Shown here: one piece after another, positions 10,020 through 64,000 of the stretch | How the letters are laid out: every line of letters starts with the position of its first letter | Position numbering within the stretch: the stretch's first letter is position 1 | Program-made: the position numbers and the translations under genes | From: Amoebophrya sp. A120 | Taxonomy: Eukaryota; Protista; Dinoflagellata | NCBI GenBank assembly: GCA_905178155.1 | Contig: CAJINV010000006.1 | Span: forward strand, 3,630,169-3,694,168 | Direction: 5' to 3' | Length of the DNA: 64,000 nucleotides | The notes under the pieces: generated by a model | Told to the model about the DNA's origin: nothing | Database searches by the model: none | Seen by the model: only the letters and a program-made list of their open reading frames with translations

Positions 10020-13000
10020 TCAAGGTAGGTGAAAACCATCTCCCTGAAACGGCAGGCGAGGGCCCCGCTCAACACCTTGGTGCCGGCCAGCTTGCCGTGA
10101 AGTTGTTGTTCTTCGGAGCCCTCGAGTAGCCCTTGACGTTGTAGTTTCCATATCTCTTTCTTCTGTTGGTGCTAGTACTACATCTTGGTCGACGTGGTCT
10201 GCAGCGCCACGACCACTGCGCTGCTCATCAATATCATCTCCTGCGTCCCTGGCGTCTAGGCTTAGCAGTCCCATCCCCTGCGCCAAGCTCCGGTCCTGAT
10301 CTAGTAGGTGGTCTTCCGCTACTTGCTCTTGCCCGGGCGGGACTACGCCAACTTCTAGGAGTACTCCTTCTGCTGAAGATGAAGCAGCAACAATACCATG
10401 ATTACCACGACGCTCCTCCGCTCGTTCCTCTTCTCCGCGAGGACCGGAGGCCCTCATTTCATCCATTATTTGTTGCTGCGGCGGTCGACGTTCTTGCTGT
10501 ACTTCTAACGCGGTCGTGCTAGCCCGCCGTGCCCGCAGGGTTTCCACTATTCCCAGTGCATCCATCAGGAGTTCGCTGTCCGGGTCCTCTGTTCCAACAA
10601 ACATAATATTGCCGAGGCGGTTGATATGGAAGCGGGTCAGGATCGAAATCGACAAAGTCGAATGAATCTGCAATGCACACAAAATAAATGCGACGCAAAA
10701 TAAAGCGACTCTATTGCAGAGGATGCGAGGAAGGCGGATTATAGTCCTGGTAAGGGTCAAGAGCAGTTGGGCTGCTGACTAGCATAACAGACAGGAGCCC
10801 TTTTGTTGCCCTAAACCGCGCGACAGACTCGGTTCCAGGACGGGGAAGATTTGTCGCGCTGCGACTACACACTGTTGGTCTAAGAACTTTAACTGGCATC
10901 GATTTTGCGCATCACAAATTTTTCGATCTTGTCGAAGATTTCGATCCTGACGCTTTCATAGTTGATCTCCGCACGAGCCTCGTGGCGGTGCCGTTGGGTA
11001 ACAGTAAGCTCCGAGACCATCTCCTCCCAAACTCCGCGCGTCAATTCGTTTCCAAACACCACTTGTCTTCTTTCCACTCTTTTCTTCAAAAATCCGCGTC
11101 GCAGCAGGATGTCGTTCAAGAGGTACGTATAAGCGACGTCTTTGACGCACCCGGCGAAGAGACAGGCCACGCAGTTGGTGTTTAGTGCGGGTTCTGCCAC
11201 GATTTTGTCACAGGTAAGGTCCAAGCGGCATACCTCTGCTGCTTCGCACCCAAATCGCCAATTCTCCTTGCAATGCGAGGTACCAAGACCGTAGGAGTAA
11301 CAGGCGGGATGGTTATGGAATGGAAATTTCTATTGCCGTAGCTAGCCTAACAACGCAGACAAAATGGCAATGCAAATTCTGTCATTCTGTTTAGTACAAG
11401 CATGCTGTGGTTGAGACTTGTCATGCTGAGTGTTCTTTGGAATAGACCCAAAAGCGTCATGATATTTTTTATCAGTATTTACGTACGTCTGATGTCCTTG
11501 CTGTACGGTAAAAAATCTTCCTGCGGATAAGCGTGATTCCGCGCACAGCAGAGACTGCTGCAAGCACAATTGATGTTATCGCAGCAGGCAGAAGTGCACG
11601 GGCCGTGAGTGAGTTTCCTGCTTCCACAACCTTCGACTTCCTCGGAACAGTAGTGTCTGCAATTTGGGACGCGGGAGCCGCAACACCTGCTGCTCTGTTC
11701 TGCTCTTTCAATAGCTTCGCTTTCTAACTCCGAGAGTGTTTTTTCAAAGTTAGCGTCTTGACCTGCTTGATGTCCTTGCTCCCCGACCTCCTTTGATGAT
11801 GCGTCGTATCTTACACCGCTCAAACTTTCCGGCACGCAACAGAGCTTCTCAAAAATCTTCTTGTTTCCGCACGACAAACTCTCCGCACAACCTGTCACAT
11901 CGTCCCCCAAGAACCGAAACCGGAAGCTGTTCGCGGTCAATTGGAAGGTGAGCAGTGCCTCTAGTTCCTCGGTTAGCGCGAGCAATGCTGGCTGGAGCTG
12001 GTCGATTTGACGGTTTGTTAAAAGCCTACGCCCGTTTTGATGGTCGTGAGCCGGAGCTGTTCTTGTCGTGGCGTGGTCGTGGCTCTCTTGGTACTGTCGC
12101 TCGTCCCCTTGATGCGCGGCAGAAGATGCTGGTGGAGCAACAGTAGAAATACTAGCAGTAGGAGCAGATGACCACGCATCTGGGTCTTGTAATATTCTTG
12201 AAGCCTGCTCCGGCGTTGGCCATAAATCGAGAGCTTCTGTTGTGCTATCTGTTGATGGAGGCATTTCCTGACTTGAAGATGCGCGACCCCGAGGACCTCC
12301 TCCTGCTTCTGTCGAAGGAGGTGGTCTTGCTCTTCTTCCTCCACGACGAGATGCTCTTGAAAAACCTCTTCGTCTTCCAGCCAAGCTCCGCAACGATTCG
12401 TCCACATTTCCAGTCTGCCGGGAAGCAACATCCCGAATTAACACTTGTTCTCGTTCTCTCTCATCCACATATGCATTGCAAAAGCGTCTGGGTCTGGAAA
12501 GGTCGAACCTGTATTGCGTGTCTCGCATGTCTGAAAAATTTGTATTGCATAAGCAGCAAATCAAGCGCCGCACTTTCGTCATGCAGAAGCGCAGTTTGTA
12601 ATGCGTTCTGCGCATGAGAAAGTGTTTGAAAAATTTGTCATGCTGCGCTGCACTTAAAAGCACAGTCAATCATGACCATTCAGCATTACAAGTTTCCAGA
12701 CCCAGGCATATTTGCATTTGATACCACATGCGGGTACACGACTTTTCCCATCTCCAAGGTGTTCATTCTAGACACAACAGCCTTGTTCCCAAGATTCGGA
12801 GAACTGCAACAAGAACTGCTGCATCTTCCCTGTCCTTCGTTTTCTAAACAGTACAAATCCCTTCTTTCAATGTACTTCCAGTGATTGAGCCAGGAAAACG
12901 TATTTTCACCGTTCGAAGACGTGTATTTCCCCGGCTCGAAGAGCGGCGTCACGCACGCACAGAGGCAGCAAGCAAGTGGGCAGTCAGTGGACGAACACCA

Positions 13001-27139: not shown

Positions 27140-30100
27140 TCAGAGAACCCCCCAGGACGAGCTGCGGCCACATTTCTTCAAACGCATAAGCAGTATCAAG
27201 TGTAAAAGTGTCTGGGTCTGGAAGAATGCAACTTGTGATGCTGCATTTGGATTCCAAAAAAATCTGTATTGCATGAGTACCGAAGGAAATGCAGTTTTTG
27301 CTAGGCTGAGAAGGCATTTGTCATGCGGAATACGCATCAAGAAGCCCTCAAAAAATCTGTATTGCTAGGGTATGCATCACAGACATCATGGCTCATGCAA
27401 AACGTGCATGACAAGTGTCAGCATCTTCCAGACCCAGACACTTTTACAGTTGATAAGCAGAACGCTCCTGCCAATTTCGCCATTCCGCGCCTGGTATCGC
27501 TGAAGATCTTGCAGAGTTGGGTACAACAGCCATTGCAACGCAGCGTATGCTGGTTTCGATGATGAGCGCGGATCGGCATCGGTGGTTGAAGTACTTGGTC
27601 CTGAAGACGAAGAAGAAGGTCGTGATGGAGCGACGAGATGTTCTTGACCACCACGCGGCGCAGAATGACGAGCAGCTCCTTCGCCATCGCCGCTGGGCAG
27701 TGGTGCAACTTGATGCTGAGCTGCACTATCAAAACTCTCCATCACCTTCCGCAAAACGTCCCGCATGCGTTGCTGCCTCACCCCAATTTTCGAAATCAGC
27801 CGGGGCCCGAGGACGTCGATAAACAGGCCGTGCGCGCAACAGTCTTTCAACATACAGACCCCACACCGGGTTACACAACCTGCGGGGTCACACAAGGTGC
27901 CAAGGCCACCGTGCAGTACAGCGCAGGGAACCAAATAGCAGCTGCAATTTCGCCGGGACAGAAAAGTCTGAAACAGGCAGGTGTTTGCCAGGTCGGTGGT
28001 ACAGGCGTGGAGATCATTTTTGGAACAGCAGCCACCGTTAATATTTCGCAGACAATTCTTCTTCGGTAGTTGACCATTCGTATTTTCGACCGGGGTTCCA
28101 CTTTTCGGCTTTTCTTTTTCCAAAGATTCTTGCTCCGATTTATTTTTCCCAGCACTTCTAGCTGCGCAATACTTTCCACAGCTCGCCGCCTCTACACACC
28201 CCGGAACTGAGTCGCCGATAAAGCGCGAGAAAACCGCTCGCGCGGCCAGCTGGTACAGGATGATTGCCTATGAATGTGCACAACTCCCCCTCCGCCTCAT
28301 TTGTCATGCAAAATGCCCAATCCAGGCCGTGCCTCTTAGCACTGTTCGCACGACAAGTTCTGGCAGCCCGAATAGCACTACAATCCTGTGCAAGAAATCT
28401 CGCATGCAAAACCTGCATTCTGGCAGGCACTTGTATTGCCGTTCATGCTACACAAGTAAGGGGGAGGGGGACGAGTTGTGCACTGTCATATTGCCTTCAG
28501 CTCGTCCAGAAACGCGGTAAGGACAGGGGCCAGAACGATAATTTCCTCCTTTGTGAGATGAAGCTGCCGATCTTCACGATCTTGCCCTCCACCTTCGTGC
28601 CGAGTTTGCTCTCCAGCTCCATCAGGAGCAGGAGCTGCTGTTGCTGCAGCTCCCACCCCGCCTTGCACTTGTTCCCGCAGTCCGTCGCCCCGAGCAGAGT
28701 CTCCTTGTTGCGGTCTTTCGTCTCGTCCAGGTCGAGGTCGTCGCCTTTCACCAACATCATCCCCAACCCGATACCGCCAGCGATTTAATCCCTGCAACAC
28801 CTGGGCACTGTAGTTTGCGTTCTCGTCTGGGCGAAAGCACAAATGCGTCGGGCTGCATAACCTCCCCTCGCCCTCCGAATGACCATACAGCAGCTCACTC
28901 TGCGTGCCCCCGCAACACGGGGGGCTGAACACCGTCAAGAAACAGCAGTTATGCACCGGGTTTAAGCAACAGTGGCGGGCTACCGACTCGGCAGTTTCGT
29001 AGGTCTCCGGGACGCAGGCCGTTGGGGTTCCATCCAGGCCGGATGTGCGGCTGCGCGCCGGCGGCGTGCAGCCACATATTGTCGGTTCCATTTTGTAGTT
29101 CCAGACCCCCGCCAACCCTCCCCCATTCCGTTTTGACAAACAGAGCATTTCGCAGCAGGTAGTATGCTCCTCAAAAGCCTTGAAGGAGTTTGGTTCTCTC
29201 CGCTGCACTTCTTCGAACTGCTCTCGTCGCGCAGTCTCTTCTTTGGTTTGGAATTTTCGCTTGTGTAGAGAAAACCTTTGGGGGCCGTTAATCGGCCCTA
29301 CTTTTCGAATCGCTTGGACTGAGAAAAGACCACCGACGTATGCAATGCAAAAGTATCGTAGTAGTAGTAATTGCAATAGATACAAGTTAGCTGAGCATGA
29401 CAAATGGAATTTGTCATGGTCTTTTGCCTTGGGATGATAATGCAAGACTTGCATTTATACGAATACGATACTTTTGCACAGGATAAAACAGTGTTCTCCA
29501 CGATCCTTCCGCCGAACGGGTTGTCATCGAAAGTTTTTTGTCTCTGTGTGTCAAACCGAAGCATGCGACGCGCGTGTTTCTTTGCCGTTGCCATCATGCT
29601 GTCAGAAGTACCACTCGAGGAGAGAAGGTGGGACGTCGAGAACTCCTGGCGATGTTCCTGATCTCCTGCTTCGCTCATGGAAATCATCTCGACGTCGTCC
29701 GAAGGTCGCAGCTGCGAAGCTTCTGTTCTTGCAGTGGTATGACGTGCACCAGCAACTACCCGCTGTGTACTAGAGCCACCTGCTCTACTGGTCGTCTCCA
29801 TTCTGTGCTGCTGCGGAGCTGGTTCTCTCACTTGGGCAGTTGCAGCAGCTCGCGCGGTAGTAGAAGTACTGCGACGACGAAACGACGCACCAATTGGAAA
29901 AGTGTCGTCTTGCATTCCATCTTGCGAAGATCTCCGATCTACCGGAGCTCGTCGTTGCCTAGTAGAAGGACCTGCTGCCGCGGCCGGGGGTGCGGCTTTT
30001 GGTGTAGAAAGAGAAAGTGCAGACAAATCCGAGGATAAGGCATCAGCTTCTGCTCCCCCTCCTCCGTGGGCCGCTTCATGAATCAGCAGCACTTCATCAT

Positions 30101-43117: not shown

Positions 43118-46100
43118 TCACAGAAACATCTTCTTGATCGCATCCCAGTTTTCCAGCACCAGTTATGGCGTTCTCAACTGTTACATTCTCAACTGTTACA
43201 TGAATTTGTGATGCAAGAATGGGAAAAGTGATAGGAGAGATCTTGCGCGTCTTGCATGACAGGTTTGGCGCCGATTATCAGCCTGCTTGGCCCTCTGCGA
43301 ATTTGTCATGCGAAGCAGCTTGATGGTGTAGATTATGAAGGCAATTCTGCATGACAAACCATGTAACAGTTGAGAATGTAACGTTTGAGAGCCCCATACC
43401 AGTGTCATTTTCCGCAGCAGGATGTGGTCCTATCCTGTGCAAAAGTATCGCAGTCGTGTAAGTGCAAGTCTTGCATTACAAATCTTTCTCTGAAGGCAAA
43501 TCCGCATTACAAATTCTATTCCTCATGCTGAGGAAATTTGTAATGCATGACGTCGCCTCGGTAGTGTCGTGGCCTCGGTACGCCACTACAAGTTGGCGCA
43601 CCGAGGCTAGAAGAGGGCTCTTTAGGACGCGCATACAAAATGGCGCACCGAGGCCAAAAATGCCCGTTTTTCGGAATGGCCGCCTCGGTGCACCGAGGCG
43701 GACGGCCTCGGTGCGCCAAATTGTAGTCGGGAACAAAGCAGCAGACGGGCGGAACACAACAGCAGAAATGGAAAAAAGCGCTCGGGGCGCGGCGGTGCCA
43801 AGATTGTTTTTTTTGGGGTGAGACGGTGAGACACGTGAAACAAATTCGATGCTGTTGCCGTGCGTTCGAGGTAGTGCTCGTCGCGCGACGCCGCGAGCAG
43901 AAGCTCCCGCGGAAGGCAAGGGGCGACGCAGGCGCGGGCGTGTGCGAAGCGAAAAAACGCACGCGAAATCGCGAAGCACGCGAGCGCAGAGAAAATGGGG
44001 GGGGGCGGGGGGGGGGAGGACCGGGGGCCCATCGGCTAATTCGCGAGGTCACGCCGCGGGCCTTGATGGTGGGCAGAAAAACAAAACCCGTACCCTTGCC
44101 CGCGTCCGAGGGCAAGGTAAAAATAAAACGCAGGAGGCGAAGGCGCCTGCGCCACCTGGGACAGGTGTGCGATGGGACGTTTTTGCGCGCCGCCTCGGTG
44201 CGCCAAAATGTATTGTGAAGGCGCGCCGCTACAATACCAATTTTGTAGGTGGGCAAAAAGACATATTTGGGCGGGCTCGGTGCTGCCATACGTTACAAAC
44301 CGCACCGGGCTCGGTGCTGCTTTTTGGCGGGTTTTCTCAATGAAAAAAGCGCGAAAATTGTAACGCCCCACATACGATTTGGCGTACCGAGTCGTATGTG
44401 CGTACCTAGGCCACGTCATGCATTTATACGAGTACGATACTTTTGCAATGCATAGGTCCGACCGGGAAACCAAATCCACGATCCGCGGCACCTATCAAAT
44501 GCAAATATCTCTGGGTGTGGAAGATTGCTAGGTTTGTCATGCATATTTTGCATGACCCAAGAAGTAGACGCCTGTAATGCATTATCCAGCATCACAACAT
44601 TTGAGAGGGCTTCCTGATGCTCATTCCGCATGAGAAATGCCACCTCCGCGTATTACAAACTAGACTGTTCTTGCTGGTCACGCAATACAGATTTTTTCAG
44701 AATCCAAAAGCAGCATCACAAGTTGCAACCTTCCAGACCCAGACACATTTGCATTTGATAGCACCCCGTTGCCCGACTCCAGATCGGCGATTGGTAATCG
44801 CTTCACCTTCTCACTGACCCAGTACACCAGTGGCGCGCCGATCGTCACCCGAATCACCGTCAACGCATGTTTGTTGTCCCAATTCGGCTGGAGTTGCACC
44901 GGCTGCGCGATGTAGCACTTGGAGGCGAGAATGTCGGAAAGGTTTTCGATCACGTGTGAACCGTAGGGGCCGGGTAAAATCACCGTGGTGTCGTTTAGGG
45001 TGGATTTCTGCTCGTCGGTCAGGGAAAGCTCGAACTTGGACAAGTCCATCGACATCAGTTTGTGCAATTTTTTCAACTCATCTAACCCCAACCGTTGCTT
45101 GTTCGAGACGGAGTTCTTCACGGGACCGCGGCAAATCAACGAAATGATCGTGTTGCACCACATCATGCCCTGATAGAAGTTTAGTATAGCATTTATGCAT
45201 CACAAACGGGTATCATAGGTTTCTCATCATCTTCATCTTCAGTAGTACTTACTGCAGCATGATCACAAAGTCATGCTCTATTTGCAGCAGATTGCTACTT
45301 CTACTCATTCAGACTGGGTGGATACGCAGGCGCAGTAAAGAAAACATAATTACTAAACAATACCGCGTCCTGTTCTTTCGTGGTCTCCGTTCCCTCATTC
45401 TCCCCGTTAGTACAAGCAACCCCAGCTGTGCCACTAGTTGCCCCAGCTCCTACCGCCAACTGTCCACTCCTGGGCCTCGGTAGGAACATGTTGTGACCAC
45501 CACCACTACTGTGAAAATCTCCCCGGGGGGAATTCGACACAAACTCCCTTTCCTCTTCGACGCACTCCAGAAACGGCGATTTCAAACCCTTCACGATTTC
45601 GCGGACGGACTCCACCCAGGTTTTCAGGATGTTGTCGCGCAAGGGTTCCGGAATTGCGTGGTACAGTTTGATTTCGTTCAGCGCCATCTTCCACCGCAGC
45701 ACCACTCCCCAATTCAGCATGCGGGCGACCCCGGTCGTGGTCTTCTTGATGCAAGACCGCATCTTCGGCAAATCAGTATGCAGTGCAAAAGCATCGCACT
45801 CGTACCAATCGCGTTTATGCATTACAAATCTTTTTGGAAAGGCAAATCCGCATGACAAATTCAATTTGTAATGCTAAGTCAATTTGTAATGCAATTTATA
45901 CTAGTACGATAACTTTTGCAATTCATAATCAGTAGATAATAGTGATTCGTCCATGAAGAGCGGGAAGTGCTTCAACTGGAACCGCAAATCTTCGTCGTTT
46001 TTTCCGCTGTGCTCACCCCAAATATCCTCGCACGATTCCAATTCCTTGCTGTAGCACAAGGGCAACAGCACCGCACCGGAGAACGGCGGACCGCCGTAGA

Positions 46101-52400: not shown

Positions 52401-52684
52401 TTTTGTCTTCTGAAGACCTAGTGTCGCGCGGAGTCTGGAAGAAGAACAACCTATTTCTGCTATAAGCATACGTATAAAGAAGAAGAAAAAACAATACAAG
52501 AGTAATTCGTATTAGTTGCAATCAGATGTAGTTGTTGAGAACTTACTTAACATTGCCAGTCCTCATTTGATAGAAGCATTTAGTATAAAGATAAACAAAA
52601 TCCAAGTAGGTTCTAAATAAAAGATTCGAGAATTCATAAATTTCATATTGATTTTTACGGCCAGCATTTGCATTCTTTCAGTTT

Positions 52685-55600
52685 TTACTGATGAAAGTAC
52701 GACTGATCCCGATTCTTGTCCCGATTGCTCCCCCGCGGCGTGCAAGCTCCGGATACGTTGCTTCTGGGCATCATGCTGTTTTCGGAGTTGTAATTTTTGC
52801 CGTTCCAATTTTGCTCCTGTTGCTGCCTGCTTGTTTCTTGGTAGTACGAGAATTGTGGTCCACCACGACCTCCACCTCCAAACGTAGGGCTATTTTTCGC
52901 ACGACCTCCTTTATAATTTTTCCCGACACTGTAAAAATTGGAATCCAACTCCGAGGTGCTGCACGATACTCCTTTGTAGTAATGATGTGCAGTAGACGTC
53001 GCCCGCCCTACAGCTGGTTGTGGATGTAGTTCTTGTGAAACAAAATTATTCAGGGGCCGCACTCCTGTTGGTCGTGGAGCAGTACTAGTAGAATTAGAAG
53101 CCATGTAATTATTCCGATCGTCGTAAAAATTGTCAACATCGCGCGACTGCTGCTTAGAACTCGTCGTCCACGACGGCTGCTGATAGAAGTGGTTGTCCTG
53201 GTCATGGTGGTACTGCTGCTGCTTGTTCATCTGGTCATGCCCCTGGTCGTGTCCCTGCCGCCCCCCGAATCCACCTGGATAGTTGTTCACATGATCATCC
53301 AACGGCGCCGCCATCGCAACTCCTGCCGCGCTATGTTGGGTATTCTCATTTCCATATGGTGTCGAGGGTACTGCTTGTTGTATGATCGGGTAATTTGAAC
53401 ATACTGGCCCACCACGACCCTTGTTCAACATCTGGGGCCCGACGAGATGGTCGGTTTGCAGCTTGTGCATGTGCAGCCCACCGCGCCAATATTCCGCACT
53501 TCCACGTGGCTGTGCCATGACTGCGACACGGTCGGCGAAGGATGGTCGTGCTCTTGGCAGAGATATGGATTCATCAGAGTTGAAATCGACAAAGTTGAAA
53601 TAATTTGCCATGCATAAAATGGATGCCAGTTGGAACCCAGTTTCCAAGTGGCGCATGACAAATTTCGGCGGTCCCTAAATCCAGTTTGTCATGCTGTTTA
53701 GGCAAAGAATAGTGATTTAGATTTTCTCATGCTACTTTAGCAGCTCGAGCTGTAACCCCAAACAGGCTTACAATCGGCCTCACTTGCCTGCTCTGCAACA
53801 CACGTACCTCGGGTCATGCATTTTATGCATTACAGATTATTTCAACTTTGACGATTTCAAACCTGACAGTTCCATAAGAGAAGGATCAGAAGTATCTGCT
53901 GTACCACGAGGACCGTCGTGTATGGAGGTGTCAGAGTTGAAATCCGCAAAGTTGAAATGATTTGTCATGCATAAAATGCGACACAAAGACTGACTCTATT
54001 GCTGAAGGCGCAAGGGAGGCAGATTCTAGTGCTGGTAAGGGTCAAGAATTGGGCTGCTGACTAGCATGACAGGGAGCAGCCATCTTGCCCTAAACAGCAT
54101 GACAGACGTGCTTCAGAGGCCAGGAAAATTTGTCATGCACCGATTGGAAACTGTGGGTCGAACTGGTATAGATTTTATGCATCACAAATTATTTCAACTT
54201 TGTCGATTTCAACTCTGACACATCCATATCGTGGTCTTCCCCGCTACAAGTCTGTAGTTGTCCCGGAAGATGATGTTCATGATGCAGTTGTCCCGGATCT
54301 TGCTCTTGGTGCACGACCGCGTTTTTGTTTTTGAGCAGGTTGTCGTCCTGTTGGAGGTAAGAAGTACTAGACTGTGGAGCTCCTCCTGCGGCCATCGCCA
54401 TGTTGTCCCCGCCGCGCGGCACGCCATCTCGTCGCCCAGCATCTTCGCGGACGACGACAGCAGGTCGTGCTGTGGGGGCAGCAGCAGCTCCTGTGCTGGC
54501 ACAAGAACCGCCTCCTCCACTAGAAGCGGGAGCAGGAGATGAACACACCTTCTTCACTGCGGCGGCCGGAGGTGGACAAGAAGTAGGTGGGGAACAGGAA
54601 TTCGCATGATCGGCATCCCGGAGCATCCGCTCCACCAAGTTTCTTTTGCTGGAAGAGATATTCTCCGGGTGGGCACCAGTACCAGCCGGTAGTTCCAGCT
54701 CGTGAGTTCCCTCAAATAACTGCTTGCTGCCTGATACTTGATTTTCGTTTCCTGGATTATTTTCGAGGTCGATTTTCAGCCTATTTGATGTTCCTCGCGG
54801 CCCAGGTCTCCATCTCATCTGCTGGCTCGTCCCGGCACGCACAACCTGCTCCGCATCGTATTCCACCAGCGTTTCGACCCGATCCAGCAGCTCCGTGACC
54901 GCTTTGTGCACGGTGAAGCTGAGTAAATGCTGGTTCCTATTCAGTTCTTCAACAGTCCGGGTTGGTGGGGACGACGACGACGAGGTGCTTAAAATTGTTC
55001 CAGGAACTCCCGCCGCATTGGGGGTCGACGTCGTCGTAGCCGTGGTGGATGTTGTTGTAATACCCTTGTCTACAACAACTGGCGCAGCAGCAGCAGCGGT
55101 TCTAACCGGCTCCCCAAACCGGTCGAATTGCGAAGTCAAAACGACGTCCGACACGGCAACGCGCTTCTTGTTCGAAATCTGCGCGCCCAGCCTGTTTTCG
55201 GCCTGCTCCTGCGTGATGTGTATCCAAGAAAAAAACTGCGTATAGTGTAACTTTCTTTGGCTGACAGCATCACAAATTTGCTCTACGTGTTGACAGAGAA
55301 AACCTGTCATGCGTGGCTCGAAAGGGAAAACACACACGAAAAGAGGACTTCATGGTTGTCTGGCATGACAGGTGTAACTCTGTTGCATGGTCTGCATTAC
55401 AGAGTTACACTTACACAGTTTTTTTCTTGCATAATGTGATCCCGTGCCATAATCCGCTCCACCTGCACCTCCCGGTTACAGAAGACCGACCAGATATGAG
55501 AGTGCGCAACTACTCCCCCTACAACTGCCCCTCATTTGTCATGCAAAAACCCAAATCCAGTTGTTACCTATACCTCCTTGTGGCACCGCGTGGATGACAA

Positions 55601-56897
55601 ATTCCGCCGATGGAACAAGTTCCAAACAGTACTACACTCGGCGTATGAATTTGTCATGCAGCACCGGGTCCACCTGTACTGGTTTATTCTTTTTGTCATG
55701 CTCTTCATGCAATACAACATATCAGGGGGAGCGGGAGCAGTTCTTGTGCACTCTCATACCAGACTTCGTCACAGGGCCACTGGGCCTCCAGCAACACAGC
55801 AGCGTCCAGAACCGCGACAACTATGCATTGCAAAACTACTCGTACAAATCGTATTTATGCATCACAAATTTCTTTGTCAAGTTAAACCCGCACTACAAAT
55901 TCCATTTTTAATGCTGAGAAAATTTGTAATGCAATTTATACTAGTACGATTATAGTACTTTTGCATTGCATAACAATGCGATTGCTGCAAAACTGGAGTG
56001 CGGTTTTCCAGTTGCGTTTATTCTTCTTGGTGTTCGCCGATGTTGCAGACGGCTGATTGCTTTCATCATCGACTGTTATTTCCGGCGCAGCGTCCTGTTG
56101 CCCTCCTTTGTTAACGGCAACAGTTACATTCCTCGCAAGCGCTTCCGCTTTTCCCAGCGCTGCTTCTGCGACCTGCATATTATCTTTGTTTATCGTGTGC
56201 AAAAGTATCGCACTCGTATAAATGCATTACAAATTTCCTCAGCATGAGAAAAAAAATTTGTAATGCGGATCGACCATAAGAAAAGGATTTGTAATGCATG
56301 ATTGCAATACGAGTACGATACTTTTGCACAGGATATTGTTGCTCTTCGACCGACTCCGTTGCTTGCTGGTGCCACGTATCAAGTGCAAATATGTCTGGCT
56401 CTGGAAGATGATTGCGAGATTTGTCATGCTTGTCTAGCATGACCAAAAAGTTTGTGACGCGTGTCAAAGAAGAGACCCTTTTGCCTGTCATGCAAAAACG
56501 CAGTTTGTCATGCGAAACACGCAACACAAAGAAGCGCAGATATTTTTCATGCTTGGCTGTGCAACATTACAGAGCGTTCACTATTCCCAACGCAGCATTA
56601 CAAGTTTCCAGACCCAGACACTTTTGCATTTGATACCACGGTTGCGGTCAGTAACCAGGGAATTCCGTTGGGAAGCGGATTTTTCTTCTTGCAGCTGCCT
56701 GTAGGCACACTCAAACTCTTCGACCTGTGGTGAAGTTTTTGAATTTTATCAAGGTCTGTCATGCAGAGCCGGCATTAATATCAAAAAATGCGGTTGGAGG
56801 TTGAGGTTGTGATGCAAACATAGCTACTTGATGTACTACTCTCTATGCAGAACATCAAAGCTTTTTCCATCCGTACCTCCTCTGCGATCTGCAGACA
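52685..56897 (-). CDS. Dephospho-CoA kinase (CoaE/COASY-type) domain protein with long low-complexity C-terminus; 5' part lies beyond the window
   Basis: Joined exons read VLDAAVLLEAQWPCDEVWSVFCNREVQVERIMARDHITQEQAENRLGAQISNKKRVAVSDVVL, the typical C-terminal half of DPCK. Confidence 0.85.
53564..53876. mobile_element. Introner family C
   Basis: DR AGAGA. Confidence 0.92.
53921..54228. mobile_element. Introner family C
   Basis: DR TCGTG. Confidence 0.92.
55221..55433. mobile_element. Introner family D
   Basis: DR ATGTG; join ARDH|ITQE. Confidence 0.92.
55495..55758. mobile_element. Introner family E
   Basis: DR CCAGA; join DEVW|SVF. Confidence 0.9.
55822..55972. mobile_element. Introner family B
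   Basis: DR ACAAC/ACAAT. Confidence 0.88.
56191..56335. mobile_element. Introner family B
   Basis: DR TTGTT. Confidence 0.92.
56377..56635. mobile_element. Introner family A
   Basis: DR CCACG. Confidence 0.92.
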
Positions 56898-57040
56898 TAT
56901 CAAATGCAAAAATGTCTGGGTCTGGAAAGAATGAAATTTGTGATGCTAACTTTCGATGATTCAAAAACCTGTATTGCATGAGGAGCAGCCGGCACTCAGA
57001 TTTTTGCTATTCCGAGAAGGCATTTCTCATGCAGTATAGG

Positions 57041-57399
57041 TGTGAAGTTTCCTGTAAATGTGGCGAACAACAAATTTGGAAACTTTCATAGAGGTTACGA
57101 TCCTCAAGCGTATTGGGGTGTTACCAATTGTGAATTCCAGTATTGCGCGTATATTGGGTTCACAAACAAGCCTGACATCGTTCCATTCAAAAATCCACAT
57201 CGGTCTTCTTTTCATCTGTATCGTTTCTCATCGTCATTGCATTCAGATTAGCACGCTATGCTAGAAGCTAGTATAGTGTGTACGATACTACAACGATAGG
57301 TGTACGATGGTCCGAATAAATATGCTCTGAACGAATACCGATAGTAGTAATGATTTTTGCATTCAGACAGAAACTGGGTGTACGTCAATACCGATGACA
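57041..57399 (-). repeat. 3' LTR
   Basis: Direct repeat of 63578-63936; two mismatches seen by eye. Confidence 0.97.
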
Positions 57400-57413
57400 T
57401 TCCCCCGTCTCCA
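57400..57413 (-). promoter_or_regulatory. Polypurine tract
   Basis: GGAGACGGGGGAA immediately before the 3' LTR on the minus strand. Confidence 0.8.
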
Positions 57414-57959
57414 TTTGAAATAGCATGTAAAATAGTATAAAATAGTAATTCTAGTAAATATTTTAGGTGCTATTTCGAAGATGAAATTAGAAAATCATAA
57501 TGGGATACAGGCTCCTGAAATAAAAGTAAATCTGTATTGCGCATGGGATACAGCATGATAAACTTGGAGGTCAAAATAAATCTACCGTGAACAAAAATGG
57601 ACGCAAAGATAAACAAGGACACTACTACAAAATCAATGGGTTTAACAGATACCCTCTATTGGTTGCGTAATAGCAGCGAGCTTCGCTGCAGACATACAAA
57701 AGTGTGCAAATGAAAACCAGAAAAAACAACAGCATGATGCGTGGAAAAACACGAGAAACAAAGGGGGTCTTAGGCAAAAAATTGAAGCAAAAAGTCTCAC
57801 GGAGGGATGTGCACAAAAGAAAAAAAATCTTCAGGCAAAAAGAGTGCGGGTGAGCTTGCAACAAAAAGTGAAAAATCACAACAAAAATTGCCAAAAAACG
57901 AAAAGAAATTGTCTCAAAAAACTTACCCGCATCCGAACCATTCAGCTCAAGGCTTGGAT

Positions 57960-60900
57960 TTAGGTGCTGACTTGGATGCGGCCAGTTGCAAACGCTTTAA
58001 TGATCATCCTGGGATAGGACGCCATATGCGTGAGCTCGTCAGCAATATTGATTTCGCGCGGAATGTGGCGCACATCAATAAGCTTTTCTTTTTGTTCTTG
58101 GCGTAGCATCGCAGCATCAGACATCAAGTTCGTTTCGCGCTTCATCTTGTGCGTAGTGCCGGCTGTGCTAACGTTATCGGATGAATCGGTTAGACACAGG
58201 ATAGGCGTACTAGCATCAAGAGTTCCGACTTCGACAAGCATACCCTGCAGATACTTTGCATCAGCATGCGCACCGCGCAACGCTAACAACTCAGAACCTG
58301 CGGGCGATGACGACCGCCGCGCTTGCTTGATCGATTGCCAACGCATCGGAATAGCGCGCCTAGATGGGCCCGGAGTCATCTCGCTGAGAAAAATGATAAA
58401 TCCAGTCTGAGACTCGCCATCTGGTCGGCCTTTAAACGAACTGTCGCTGAAAGAGACTAGCTGAAGGGGTCCTTGCAGCTTGAAAAAATTAGTGCTAAAA
58501 TCCAACCTGTGTGCTACTGTGCGCGCGACTTTGTTCAGCTTGTGGATGTCCGACCAGGTCGGATGCTCCATGACTGAACTCAAAATCGACAATGGGCATG
58601 CGATATCAGGGCGCGAACGCGTGGCCCATCGCAAATTGCCGATAAGTGCGCGGTAGGGGCACTTGCCGTCTTTGTTCTTCTGTGTGAACGGCTCACGCGA
58701 TTCCGCATCAACACCATGCGGAATTGGAATTTCGACGATCTTAGAAGTGTAGTGCTCCTGCGAAAGTCGAAAACTGTGGTCGGTGTTCAGCGCGAGCTTT
58801 TGCCCGACGTAGTTCACAGGGTTGGAAAACGTCAAATCCTCTTTGGAACCAAACGAAAAAGTTTCTTCCAGGGGTGCCAGTACTAACTTTTTGAAAAGTT
58901 CACCGCCAGAATACAGCAAATCATCAACAAAAACGCACATAGTTCCAATGATACGACCGCCCTGCGGGGGCTCGTGCCGAAAGGTCGGGTCGGATTGGAT
59001 TTGTGCTGCTGTGTCTTCTGTGTAAACTGGGCGGGGTGGTGGGATTAGATTGTTGTTTTGGTCCACAACAAAATAAAGCAGATTCTGGTCAGCTGTCACA
59101 GACCAGGCGCAGAGTTCTTTTAACCGCTTGAACAGAGCTGCCTGCCAGCGTTCGGGTGCGTCGATTAAACCATAGAGTCACTTTTTCAGCCTAATGACAG
59201 GCGCCTCAATGATTTTGCACTTGCGAACCGCTGCGGGTACTGTGATGTAGAGCGGCTTTTCGTTGGGGTCGAAATAGAAACCACGCAGAAACGCAGTCTC
59301 GATATCGCCACTCCCGATGTCCAATCCATGTTGCTTGGAAAAGACAAGGAACGTCTTCAAGCCTGCTTCGCTGATCATGCTGCTGTCCGTTCTTATGTCC
59401 TCAGAACCTTTTCGTGGGTCCTGAAAACCGCGAACAACCCACCTTGCTTTCACACGCTTTAGCGTGCCTTTTATCGTGTCTATTTTTAATGTCCACACGA
59501 TTCGCGACTCCATGGCTCGACTTTGATCCACATCTCCCTGCGGCAACTCGTAGACATCATTGTCTTTGATGCTACCAGTTTCCTTGTTCAACGCCTTGAA
59601 CGCTTCGGGCTGTAGACCATGGTCGATCAAGAAGTTGTAGGACACTTCGACATTGCCAGATTTGATCTCCTCCGGCTTAAGGGAAAGAGTCACACTGGGC
59701 AAGTCGACGCGGCGTAGACAGGCTAGCGAAAAGACAAAATCATATCCACTAACCTTGTCGCCGTGCTTCTTTCTGCTGAAAAAACCGTCTTTGGTCAAAA
59801 CAAAGTGAAAAACATCGTAGCGCTTTTTCCAGTTCAAATCACTTTTGACCGTGTAGCAGTTTTTGTTGATTTTCATCAACGCAATCTCCCTGCTGGTTTG
59901 CGCTGCGAAAAACTGAAAAACTTCCTGCCCTTTGTCAACTATCACCCGATGCCCTGAGTGGTGTTCGTAGCGCTCTTTTGTCAACCTAGAAAGCAAATCT
60001 TTTTGGCTCTCATCAAGTGAAAACGAAATGTCTCCACCTGATTCCGCCGCAAGAAAAGCTTGCGCCCATCGCGCTTCGCGCTCACGGCGCCTACGTTCCG
60101 CGCGTAGCGTGCGCGGGTCGGGCTCTTCGTCCTCCTCTTCCTCAGAAGTTGCGGGAGGTGACTCAGGGGCTTGGGGCGGGGCTTTTGCTTTTGCTTTGGG
60201 TGGTGCTTGTGCTTTTGCTTTTGGTGCTTCAGCACCTTGCGGAACTGTCAAATTTTTAGTGCTAGTCGTACTGGTAGTAGTGGTAGTAGCATGCTGATCT
60301 GCGACATTCGGACTGTTACTTGAACTAGAACTAGAGGCGTTTTTAGAAAAATGAATCGACTGACTTTCGGATTGAAGATTTGCATGAGCATGCGGATTTA
60401 GTACTTGCGCATGCGATACGGACTTTGCTTTTGCTACACTGTGAGGGGCTCCCTCTTTTGGTACTGCGCTGCTGTTGGGTAGTGCTTTTGCAGCTTGTTG
60501 CCGTGCGTAGTGCTGGTAAATTGGATGCGCTGAAAACTCTAGCGATGGGATGACTCGCAACTGAGAACCACTCTTCCTCACATGATATCCAGTCGATTTC
60601 CCGTAAAGCAGGTAGATCGGTCTGCCTGCGTGTCCTTCCTCCAGCCCGATTATTTTGGTCCCTAACCAGGCTCGATCGACTTCGGAATAGTATTCCACTG
60701 CTGCTCCCGGAGTTAGTTCATCTTCCTTCGGTTTCCGGCGAATTTCCAAACGCTTCAGAAACTCCTTGTCAACTGCAACTTGTTCCAACATCTGGCGGAT
60801 TTGCAACCGCTCGCGAAACTCTTCCAGAAAGGACGACTTTTCCGGAATTTGTTCCGTTTGTTGGTCCAGAAACGTGCGAACATTACTAGGCGTCCTACAG

Positions 60901-63212
60901 AATTCAGCCTCGAAAGGAGAAATCTTGTCGGGTAGAACGCTACTGCTCTGCAGGTTGACTGCGTTTATGACCTTTTTCAGAAGTTCGGTTCCGTTTCTCG
61001 TGTTGCCCAGGCGTCTGAGCCGAAACGTAACTTCTCGGAAAACCTTGTGTCTGCGCTCACAGATTCCGTTTTCCCAGTGCTCCTCGCTGGGAAGAAGATG
61101 GAGACTGACTCCTTCTTGCTTGCAGAAATCTCGGAGCTCGGTCGAGATGAACTGTCTTCCAGGGTCGGCCATCAAATTGCGCGGAAGAAATCCCTTTTCC
61201 TTCAGCTCCTTGAGGAAAGTGATAACATCCGCCGTTTTGACGTTTTTGGAGGGGGGCTTGTGACCTCGGGAATATCTCGAGTGGAGATCGATAGCATGCA
61301 ACATCTCATTCTCTTTTGGTGCTCCGAGAAATACCGACTGAGAATAGTAATAGATGTCGAGGGCCATCCATTCTCCTACTTTTGTGGAAACGAAGGTGGC
61401 TGCTCGTGGTCTACGTGGTGCGTAGCGTGTTCGCGCCATTGTAGTTGCTATCATCCTCGCCATTGCTAGGGCTTCTACGTCTGACAGTATTCTCCAGGAT
61501 ACGATACCGGAACTATCTTTATCTGGAAATCCTTTACTTTCGAGAATTGCGAAACTCGTGGCGAATTTGTCTTGTCTTTGTGGCGTGTCCGGTTTTCCAG
61601 TGCTCGACAAATATTTCTTGTAAAGTGATTCCAGAATCCTCGCTCCACTGCCTTAGACGCAAGTCTGGTCGCCCTTGACGACCAGGATTCCTTTTTCCTT
61701 TTGCAACTGCTTCGGGGTTTTGCAGTTTTTCAGCTTGCAAGTTTTGTTGACAACATCGACCGCCTCGAGATCGCTGCACCCTAACAGGAACGGGGTCGCT
61801 CCCTGAACCACTCGGAAGGTTCTGGATGCTCCGAACACGAAGCAAGCGGCTTTCTGCGTGCTGGTGCTGTTGTTGCCGTCGGCAAACGCAAACTTGACCG
61901 GACTAGCCTCCTGCAAGTCGTAAGCCAGCTTGCTAGCATCCAACGTTTCTTGTCCCACCAGGCTGCTAGCGCAGCCCGTATCCACCGCCATAGACTGGGG
62001 CGATTCGAACGACAAGAAAGCAGCAGAAACTTTTTCGGTCTCTTGTTCTTCCTTCGGCTGTTCCTGTTCTTCCTCGGGGTAGTAGTCGTAGTCGTCGTTG
62101 TGGTCGTACTCACCATCCCACTCTTCGTAGGGATAGTCGTTTTCGTACTCGTCATCTTCGCCGACAGCCCCTGCTGCGTAGCGCGAAGATTTTCCTTTCC
62201 ACCCGAAACGCGACTTGCCTCCTTTGCCTTTCCCCGGTCCTGGGCGGTTCGGGGTGTACGTTTTTCCTTTGGCCTTGCTGTTGTTCTTGCCGCTCGGCTT
62301 CCCGTGGTGGGCGCTCGACGACGGAGAACCTGAACCGTAGGTCAACCCGCGATAATTGGCATAGTTCGGATACCATCGCTGTTTTCCTTTTCCTGCTGCG
62401 GCTGTGGCGCTTTCCTCCCGGCCTGCAAACGACGCAAGACACTTGACAACTTGCTTGTCAATGTCCTTGAACGCGTAGGACGCGGAAGCGCCCAAAATTT
62501 GTCCCGTCTGCAGCTGAGTTAATCCGAACGATCTTAAGTACAGAAGACCTAAAAACTCTTCTCGTGGAAGATGCGCCAGCGCCTGCGCGCTCTGCTGGAA
62601 GCGCGCGCGCGCCGTCACCAGGTCCCCGGTGTCGCTGTTTCTTTCCACCAACCGACACACTTCCGAAAACAGATGCATCTGGAGATCGCCGAACAGAGCC
62701 TCCCTAATCTGTTCCAGCATGGTATCGTAGGTTAACGATTCCGCCACTGTTGGCGTAGCCAGATGCGTATGCACTGCCTGCAACGAAATTGCTTGCTTGA
62801 TTTGTGGAAGGCCTAAGCTTTCCTCGATCCCGTATTTTCGCAAATTAGAAAGATAGCCCACAAGGTCCCGGCTGTAGGCGTTAAACTGCCCGAGTTCTTG
62901 CAACTTGGGGGCGGCTTTCTGATAGTCCCAGCGGCTGAGCGGGGGCGAAGCTGTGGCCGGGGCCTGCATGTTCGGCATGGCGTTCCCCGGCTGGGGCGGC
63001 GTCGTTCCCGCTGTATTTGCTTGGCCGAGGAGATGCCGCGCGATCGGCTCGATCATTTGGGTCAGCTGTCCGAGTCTTCTCATGGTCTCCCGAAACTCTT
63101 CGGGCGTAATCGGCTGCGTTTCGCCTGCCATTGGACTCGGTCCCGCTGCGTGTTGTCCTGTTGGATGTGGCGGAGGAGGGTACTCCGCACCGGAATCGAA
63201 AGGATTGAACAT
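57960..63212 (-). pseudogene. Copia gag-pol polyprotein in a single frame with two in-frame stops (TAA 61653-61655, TGA 59178-59180)
   Basis: Protease AVDTGC; integrase MALD/ADPG/GICERRH; RT KARWVVRGF, LKK*LYGL, FVDDLL; RNase H FSDSSF, LTDS, IADELT. The three ORF pieces share a frame. Confidence 0.85.
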
Positions 63213-63567
63213 TTTTGGGGTTGTTAAGATGGAAAATTTGTAATGTTAAGTAAGGGATTTTTACTTAGAATTAAGGTGATGCGATATAAGAACTTGTAAT
63301 GCGAAACACGAGCTAACTACTTAAAAATAGGCATGTTTTTCAAAAAAGTTGTATGTGGAAAATTATATGATTTACATGGAGATTAGAAGTATACTATACT
63401 TGATTTATGCGTTTTTACTTGTGTTATTTTGAATTTGTGATGCTGCTTCTGTATAAAACTGTTGAGTTATGTATTTTGTTTTTTATGCTATGTAAAAAAC
63501 TGTAACTATTTATTTTTCGAATTTGTCATGCTACTATAAAAATTTTAAAGTGAAGAAAGAAATAAAA

Positions 63568-63577
63568 TCCGCTACCA
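63568..63577 (-). promoter_or_regulatory. Primer-binding site, probably initiator tRNA-Met
   Basis: TGGTAGCGGA directly after the 5' LTR, complementary to a tRNA 3' end ...GCTACCA. Confidence 0.75.
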
Positions 63578-63936
63578 TGTGAAGTTTCCTGTAAATGTGG
63601 TGAACAACAAATTTGGAAACTTTCATAGAGGTTACGATCCTCAATCGTATTGGGGTGTTACCAATTGTGAATTCCAGTATTGCGCGTATATTGGGTTCAC
63701 AAACAAGCCTGACATCGTTCCATTCAAAAATCCACATCGGTCTTCTTTTCATCTGTATCGTTTCTCATCGTCATTGCATTCAGATTAGCACGCTATGCTA
63801 GAAGCTAGTATAGTGTGTACGATACTACAACGATAGGTGTACGATGGTCCGAATAAATATGCTCTGAACGAATACCGATAGTAGTAATGATTTTTGCATT
63901 CAGACAGAAACTGGGTGTACGTCAATACCGATGACA
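63578..63936 (-). repeat. 5' LTR
   Basis: TGTGAAG...GATGACA, followed by ATAGG. Confidence 0.97.
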
Positions 63937-64000
63937 ATAGGCATGAGAGAGCCTTCACACAACCTGTAATGCTAAAGCATGCATCATCGACATCGTAGGT

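Follow-up and report, generated by a model that had tools for sequence, protein, structure and literature searches.

We examined a 64,000-bp stretch of the genome of the dinoflagellate Amoebophrya sp. A120 (assembly GCA_905178155.1, contig CAJINV010000006.1, positions 3,630,169 to 3,694,168 of the forward strand; hereafter the window, with its first base as position 1) in which a long terminal repeat (LTR) retrotransposon of copia type is nested inside an introner, and the introner in turn interrupts a gene on the minus strand predicted to act in coenzyme A (CoA) synthesis. The insertion enlarged the introner from approximately 265 bp to approximately 7.17 kb (about 27-fold), close to the growth from about 260 bp to more than 7 kb proposed in an earlier reading of the DNA letters alone (hereafter the sequence-only reading). 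In a contig from one sequencing run treated as RNA, the exons flanking the enlarged introner were joined exactly and in frame.

The nested insertion

The retrotransposon (57041-63936, minus strand, 6,896 bp) was delimited by a pair of 359-bp LTRs with TG...CA ends which differed at 2 of 359 positions, the 3' LTR at 57041-57399 and the 5' LTR at 63578-63936 (both minus strand), and by a 5-bp target site duplication (TSD), ATAGG, with its left copy at 57036-57040 and its right copy at 63937-63941 (strand-neutral; chance of an exact 5-bp flank match, approximately 0.001). The sequence-only reading had a family-A introner breaking at the first ATAGG and resuming after the second, and the alignments bear this out: in-silico removal of the element together with one ATAGG gave a 202-bp sequence which aligned across the break with family-A introners and was 76.6% identical over 197 nt to the family-A introner at 27194-27455. 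An assembly artefact was ruled out by the TSD, the TG...CA ends and the register with the paralogues.

The introner arm within the window (56898-57040, minus strand, 143 bp) forms, in the direction of transcription, the 3' end of the intron; it includes a terminal inverted repeat (TIR) of approximately 31 bp (56898-56928) and finishes with one copy of the TSD. From 56898 the inverted repeat starts with TAT, seven nucleotides and AAA, as in A120 introner elements, and the TIR matches that of a paralogue (56605-56635) at 30 of 31 positions. One copy of the introner's 5-bp direct repeat (AGACA on the plus strand) lies at 56893-56897 on the minus-strand gene. On the other side of the retrotransposon 59 bp of introner are seen before the window ends (63942-64000, minus strand). 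In alignment with the 11 family-A copies in the window identities were 48-75%, and in the five closest copies (70-75%) 62-65 bases remained after the last aligned base; judged from these, the far introner end is predicted 62-65 bp past the window, at approximately 64062-64065, with a partner AGACA-type repeat predicted just past the far TIR. The copy at 12477-12723 was excluded from this length prediction (it had been 7 bp short). A metagenome scan for the second TIR found none.

Six intact paralogues had folding energies of -88 to -119 kcal/mol, and each of the six minus-strand structures listed is closed by a long terminal stem. The TSD occupies an internal 7-nt loop, that of the central hairpin of the introner, and so lies apart from the terminal stem of the paralogues. 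Family-A introners occur in both orientations (12470-56635) though both genes examined are on the minus strand, which would be expected if removal depends on symmetric ends.

At the visible end of the enlarged introner no cut register gives AG, and none gives GT-AG if the repeat of the target was perfect, so that there is no usable GT-AG pair there. The other introners are likewise flanked by 5-bp repeats, and the six with perfect repeats had no GT-AG in any of six cut registers (the introner at 55822-55972, which has an imperfect repeat, was left out of this test). The intron with the nested element falls outside the GT-AG definition of a canonical spliceosomal intron.

The host gene

Inverted repeats of the form TAT...ATA flanked by 5-bp repeats were scanned for, and seven more introners were found between 53564 and 56635, all in the minus-strand host gene (53564-53876, 53921-54228, 55221-55433, 55495-55758, 55822-55972, 56191-56335 and 56377-56635). 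In-silico removal of the seven, with one repeat kept each time, opened a minus-strand frame to a stop at 52685. The largest host exon was 100% identical to one database protein, P0001 (1,766 aa, source label Amoebophrya sp. A120), and the 3' part of the host gene in the window (52685-56897, minus strand) corresponds to residues 977-1766 of this PPAT-DPCK protein. A host gene on the plus strand was considered and rejected.

P0001 has a PPAT-like domain at approximately residues 446-590 and a DPCK domain at approximately 834-1165. The profiles CTP_transf_like (22.7 bits, cut-off 21), CoaE (99.2 bits, cut-off 27) and TIGR00152 all scored above cut-off, the match to PRK00777 (E=5.6e-15) was below cut-off, and the best match in the PDB was the bifunctional CoA synthase 2f6r (E=1.2e-14). 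From these matches the host gene is predicted to encode a bifunctional PPAT-DPCK of CoA synthase type; the sequence-only reading had named a DPCK gene of CoA biosynthesis, and the DPCK domain was found, in a bifunctional protein and not a plain DPCK. The enlarged introner lies within the DPCK domain, separating residues 976 and 977. The C-terminal approximately 600 residues (52685-55220) are of low complexity, rich in Q, N, G and S, and without a Pfam match.

The element's open reading frames (ORFs) and the host gene are all on the minus strand, and so co-oriented as had been proposed, and host exons past 64000 are upstream. The sequence-only reading was right that an exon ends at 56897, but this is a micro-exon of 21 nt (56877-56897, minus strand, residues 977-983 of P0001) which immediately follows the enlarged introner in the direction of transcription, and the exon past 64000 is the upstream one. 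The micro-exon is followed by a canonical GT-AG intron of 152 nt (56725-56876, minus strand). A decayed introner was considered as its origin and rejected, no good match to introners being found.

RNA evidence for removal of the enlarged introner

Six of 11 sequencing runs were compared with the window, X1 (DNA-like), X3, X4 and X6 as contigs and X9 and X10 as raw reads. X3, X4 and X6 were treated as RNA though they have no RNA record: X3 and X6 skip introns, and X4 is from the sample of X3. X3 and X4 are two runs of one sample, which is different from that of X6.

Single contigs of X3 (4,721 nt) and X6 (5,937 nt) each skipped seven of the seven short introners and kept one repeat copy; the host gene is expressed. 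The X6 contig also skipped the 152-nt GT-AG intron, then matched 23 letters (56875-56897) and departed from the window at 56897, the last base before the TIR, with approximately 1,290 nt still remaining. Translated on the minus strand, the loose end past 56897 gave P0001 residues 967-976 and kept to the reading frame of the 21-nt exon, and the junction retained exactly one copy of the direct repeat. The RNA joining the exon at 56897 to the exon past 64000 which the sequence-only reading had called for is therefore present in one contig run, and the source annotation of P0001 joins the same residues (976/977) across the filled locus. The cut lies 143 nt away from the LTR, at 56897, and not at the ends of the LTR element. 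Four AG dinucleotides in the next 21 nt were kept in the X6 RNA, and none of them served as acceptor in that contig.

X6 was identical to the window across three long pieces totalling 2,259 nt, compared with 2 differences in 359 between the LTRs, and by a hand estimate approximately 4 differences would be expected at unconstrained sites had the alleles split before the insertion. For this reason the X6 RNA appears to have come from insertion-bearing cells.

We consider it probable that the intron of approximately 7.2 kb is removed as one unit and that, regardless of its interior, the TIR pair and the 5-nt direct repeat define its ends. A number of points weigh against this. Neither a filled nor an empty junction at 57040/41 was found in any run, and depth was 0 over 56946-57064 in X6, X4 and X1; this hole proves nothing, and its likely cause is assembly pruning of short links between high-depth repeats. 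The far TIR and the second repeat lie beyond 64000 and are predicted only. The spliced junction was present in one of the three contig runs covering the exons and showing splicing (X6; not X3 or X4), with 0 of 5 partly aligned contigs of X4 containing it, and the sole X3 and X4 contig over 56640-56925 keeps the 152-nt intron and enters the TIR as far as 56925. Contigs are not single molecules, and they show presence but not absence or a splicing rate. Differences between LTRs can arise in retrotransposition, so the dating argument is soft. The sequence-only reading regarded the locus as a test of TIR-guided removal across 7 kb; it does provide a natural test, with an exact junction in X6, and TIR pairing as the guide for the cut is what we infer.

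Raw reads of X9 and X10 (80 and 1, respectively) were all TIR-like with foreign flanks, with 0 on exons, and were uninformative for splicing. The 80 reads of X9, which is another sample under the same species label, contained a near-identical TIR (56897-56927), most with one flank; family-A ends may be common to another strain. The introner with an imperfect direct repeat at 55822-55972 gave a further observation: the upstream copy's first letter stays in the RNA, so the cut there is at least 1 base inside the repeats, and introners with imperfect repeats could map the true splice register. The 152-nt intron was spliced out in X6 and kept in X3 and X4, while X3 removes all downstream introners; its retention may be linked with the long introner or with life stage.

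Anatomy and coding content of the retrotransposon

A polypurine tract (57400-57412, minus strand) adjoins the 3' LTR, and a sequence resembling a primer-binding site and starting with TGG (63560-63577, minus strand) immediately follows the 5' LTR; no tRNA was found in the window. Between them is a single minus-strand frame of 1,747 codons broken by two in-frame stops. The first part is a Gag-like and aspartic protease frame of 516 aa from the first Met (61656-63203, minus strand) with a DTG motif at residue 408; the 400-aa frame at the Gag position had no Pfam match to a Gag domain, and Asp_protease_2 matched weakly (E=0.19). An in-frame TAA (61653-61655, minus strand) lies between protease and integrase, where 11 alignments of relatives continue through the site in one ORF. 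The second part (59181-61652, minus strand, 824 aa) contains the integrase core and the N-terminal part of the reverse transcriptase (RT), and its matches to Pfam rve (E=4.2e-5) and RVT_2 (E=1.2e-4) are both below the curated cut-off, the RT domain being split. The split is at an in-frame TGA within a conserved RT motif (59178-59180, minus strand), likely a nonsense mutation: among 114 aligned relatives the residue at this site is C, S, T, P, A, V, H, G or L and never W. The third part (57960-59177, minus strand, 405 aa) was assigned from HMMER relatives and motifs to the C-terminal part of the RT (FVDD) and RNase H.

With both stops read through as X, the order of domains was protease (residue 408), integrase (approximately 590-770), RT (FVDD at 1425) and RNase H (1585-1721). 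A HMMER search with the RT-RNase H part returned 4,940 representatives at E<=0.001, and RVT_2 was above cut-off in five of the six top relatives scanned. The closest relatives were 31-37% identical across the RT-RNase H frame (one fragment, 53%). No HHCC zinc-binding motif was found before the integrase core (61300-61655), nor in the three closest relatives checked (P0149, P0009 and P0010), and it was found in five of five more distant relatives checked; its absence looks like a lineage trait, possibly of a copia lineage without the zinc finger. The element is of copia type, on the strength of its domain order, the RVT_2-type RT of its relatives, the TGG start of the putative primer-binding site and the purine tract.

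Because relatives run through both sites in frame and W never occurs at the TGA, both stops are most simply explained as nonsense mutations, in keeping with the LTR divergence: two stops fit the age given by the LTRs (expected number 0.63; P(>=2)=0.13, range 0.003-0.66). Stop-codon reassignment, which occurs in another Amoebophrya (PMC11453091), was rejected, there being two stops only in 1,747 codons, no W in 114 relatives at the TGA, and a host gene which ends at TAA. Programmed readthrough at the TAA was without support. The copia element called young by the sequence-only reading is thus indeed recent and of copia type, but with its gag-pol frame interrupted by TAA and TGA this copy is not autonomous.

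An intact close copy of pol was not found in the protein database (five distant matches among longer proteins and none at similar lengths), which is weak evidence, and metagenome scans gave 95 pattern matches with 0 confirmed relatives and 0 matches to the right flank. In X1 an LTR contig had a depth of 317 compared with 37-42 in single-copy contigs, which hints at several copies and gives no copy number. One X3 contig was 99% like the LTR region 57060-57459 (three other letters, one gap) and further contigs were approximately 90% alike. Additional copies of this LTR family are likely transcribed.

Landing sites and alternative explanations

Within the window a second nested insert of 871 bp and 60% GC (43548-44418) was found in a 149-bp introner (43431-44454). 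It has TG...CA ends, 6-bp TIRs and a 4-bp TSD, and is a candidate solo LTR or Ginger-like element; in-silico removal of all 1,024 bp of 43431-44454 together with one repeat copy keeps the frame open. This second case suggests that introners tolerate cargo. The sequence-only reading had described introners as safe landing sites, and of this the tolerance is what stands, while "safe" is weakened by the unspliced X3 and X4 RNA. Retrotransposons in ordinary introns are common, and on balance we favor the view that introners are not special landing sites and that LTR elements land by share of non-coding DNA, as in any intron. TIR/repeat elements make up approximately 17% of 1-56897 (42 calls, 9,977 bp; shuffled sequence gives 0-6 calls, so a few of the 42 are chance), introner elements are reported as 17% of the A120 assembly (PMC7789003), and two nested cases in 64 kb can be accounted for without targeting. 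Against this, both clear inserts found in the window sit in introners, inserts elsewhere in the window being uncounted. Since introners are already approximately 17% of both window and assembly, the data support tolerance, and not preference, of introners for inserts.

A second alternative, to which we give rather less than even weight, is that the insertion is tolerated but not neutral, either because transcription begins in the co-oriented 3' LTR and proceeds into the gene's downstream half or because the introner is detained in one life stage; one sample would then make mostly unspliced or truncated RNA. It would add to, and not replace, removal of the intron as one unit. The sole X3 and X4 contig, which keeps the GT-AG intron and enters the TIR though X3 skips seven of seven downstream introners, speaks for it, as does the patchy X3 coverage inside the element, at a depth of 3.5-5.5 compared with 24 for the gene contig. 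However, retention may be general to that sample (one GT-AG intron was compared), expression cannot be read from contig depth, nothing follows from holes in coverage and contigs cannot show where an RNA starts.

That the spliced RNA came from cells or a sister lineage with an empty 265-bp introner, and so shows nothing about removal of 7 kb, seems improbable to us. The filled junction was not seen in X6 or any other run compared, and the RNA and DNA runs are different samples. Yet X6 had no differences in the 2,259 nt compared, and the element copy is old enough for two LTR differences and two stops; of the words of 52500-62000, a stretch that is half element, the two best runs contain fractions of 0.82 and 0.77; no empty-site loose end at 57040 was seen among the matches listed; and the source annotation spans the filled locus.

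We put at about the same low level a stepwise removal in which the retrotransposon, or part of it, leaves first via cryptic sites and the TIRs never act across 7 kb. The end product alone is seen, and nested two-step introns (stwintrons) have been described elsewhere, but the element has no introner-type ends within it (its sense strand has no TIR-like start and one weak TIR-like end), and no joint within the element was found among 15 of 18 joints listed. Least likely of all is trans-joining, in which upstream RNA ends at one LTR, downstream RNA starts at the other and the TIR arms pair between molecules: co-oriented LTRs normally carry promoter and 3'-end signals, X3 and X4 contain downstream RNA beginning with introner sequence and the element interior is little covered, but direct evidence is lacking and low interior coverage is equally expected from fast intron decay or contig filtering.

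Removal of the intron as one unit would fit the following sequence of events. A copia-type element would have inserted into the central loop of the introner, sparing its termini, and the unseen far TIR would be intact. Pairing of the terminal TIRs, or a factor binding the paired ends, would set the cut, with intron length and interior fold irrelevant to removal. The insertion may have survived selection and become fixed because the termini were spared, and the element copy later likely died when two nonsense mutations arose in it. In some conditions removal is probably slower or incomplete, holding back the neighboring GT-AG intron across the 21-nt exon.

Comparison with known systems

Introner elements of A120 start with TAT, seven variable bases and an A run, have direct repeats and non-canonical ends and average approximately 240 nt (PMC7789003). 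The present introner shares with those of Farhat et al. 2021 (PMC7789003) the start motif, the repeats, the non-canonical ends and membership of repeated families here, and differs from a typical copy in being approximately 27 times longer through the nested LTR element. Farhat et al. analyzed introns of 40-1000 bp only, a limit which would have left out such long cases, and their table includes one A120 intron of 35,152 bp (PMC7789003).

With Ty1/Copia elements (Pseudoviridae type) the retrotransposon shares TG...CA LTRs, a 5-bp TSD, the putative primer-binding site and polypurine tract, the protease-integrase-RT-RNase H order and the RVT_2-type RT of its relatives; two in-frame stops, the lack of the HHCC motif and relatives just 31-37% identical set it apart. 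Copia-derived introners of Panicum virgatum (PMC12130899) are similar in that a multi-kb Copia element leaves the host transcript, but there the LTR element itself forms the intron whereas here the enclosing TIR element is cut, 143 nt from the LTR. A120 families 3, 9 and 38 of the same study are also TIR-type introns with homology to Copia or other RTs; family 38 (approximately 810 bp) is without an LTR pair, unlike the present element.

All 58 A120 rows of Dataset S2 of PMC12130899, which reports domain scans of all copies, were covered, with cells visible to approximately 400 characters. In the visible part of its cell, family 3 (3,852 copies), filed there as non-LTR, lists PF07727 and cd09272 twice each and PF00665 once; family 9 (2,231 copies, a 278-bp TIR element) lists PF00078 four times. 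Judged from these domain lists, the Copia and RT domains of families 3 and 9 are likely nested cargo. Nesting is not described in that paper ("nested" occurs 0 times in its main text and supplementary PDF), and the accessible text of the preprint of Roy et al. 2023 likewise gave 0 hits for "nested".

Non-conventional introns of euglenids (PMC11282704) have TIR-paired ends, TSD-like repeats, non-canonical borders and an unexplained mechanism in common with the present intron, and reach several thousand nt. They belong to another lineage and are reported to be removed after conventional introns, whereas here, in one sample, the GT-AG neighbor is kept together with the long introner. The host protein resembles COASY (PDB 2f6r) in having a cytidylyltransferase-like PPAT domain followed by DPCK; it differs in its length of 1,766 aa with long low-complexity stretches and in the introner which splits DPCK at 976/977, and its role as a CoA synthase is predicted. 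In the literature searched, with subscription journals outside its coverage, we came across neither a description of an LTR element inside an Amoebophrya introner nor one of exact removal of a non-GT-AG introner enlarged 27-fold.

Implications

A broader proposal joins three parts: that introners are length-independent splice-out cassettes set only by their paired ends and repeatedly used as landing sites in essential genes; that some published "retrotransposon-derived" A120 families are nested cargo; and that the co-oriented LTR imposes on the CoA synthase mRNA a condition-dependent block or an LTR-started, possibly trans-joined RNA. We regard it as unlikely that all of these hold together.

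Amoebophrya has tens of thousands of non-GT-AG introns, no U1 small nuclear RNA has been detected, and the mechanism of removal is unexplained (PMC7789003). The locus is in effect a natural insertion mutant, with a 27-fold longer interior and the same cut. This speaks for the termini alone being important, and against models in which the whole intron must fold compactly or the next AG is reached by scanning. It offers an assay through counts of the junction, the excised 7-kb RNA and the order of removal relative to the neighboring GT-AG intron. It also demonstrates a route by which large retrotransposons persist within a core metabolic gene, and warns that nested cargo may cause introner families to be misclassified. 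The locus is a combination of known parts, and is valuable because it tests, in nature, a mode of splicing that is unexplained and that likely needs just the ends of the intron and likely works across 7 kb.

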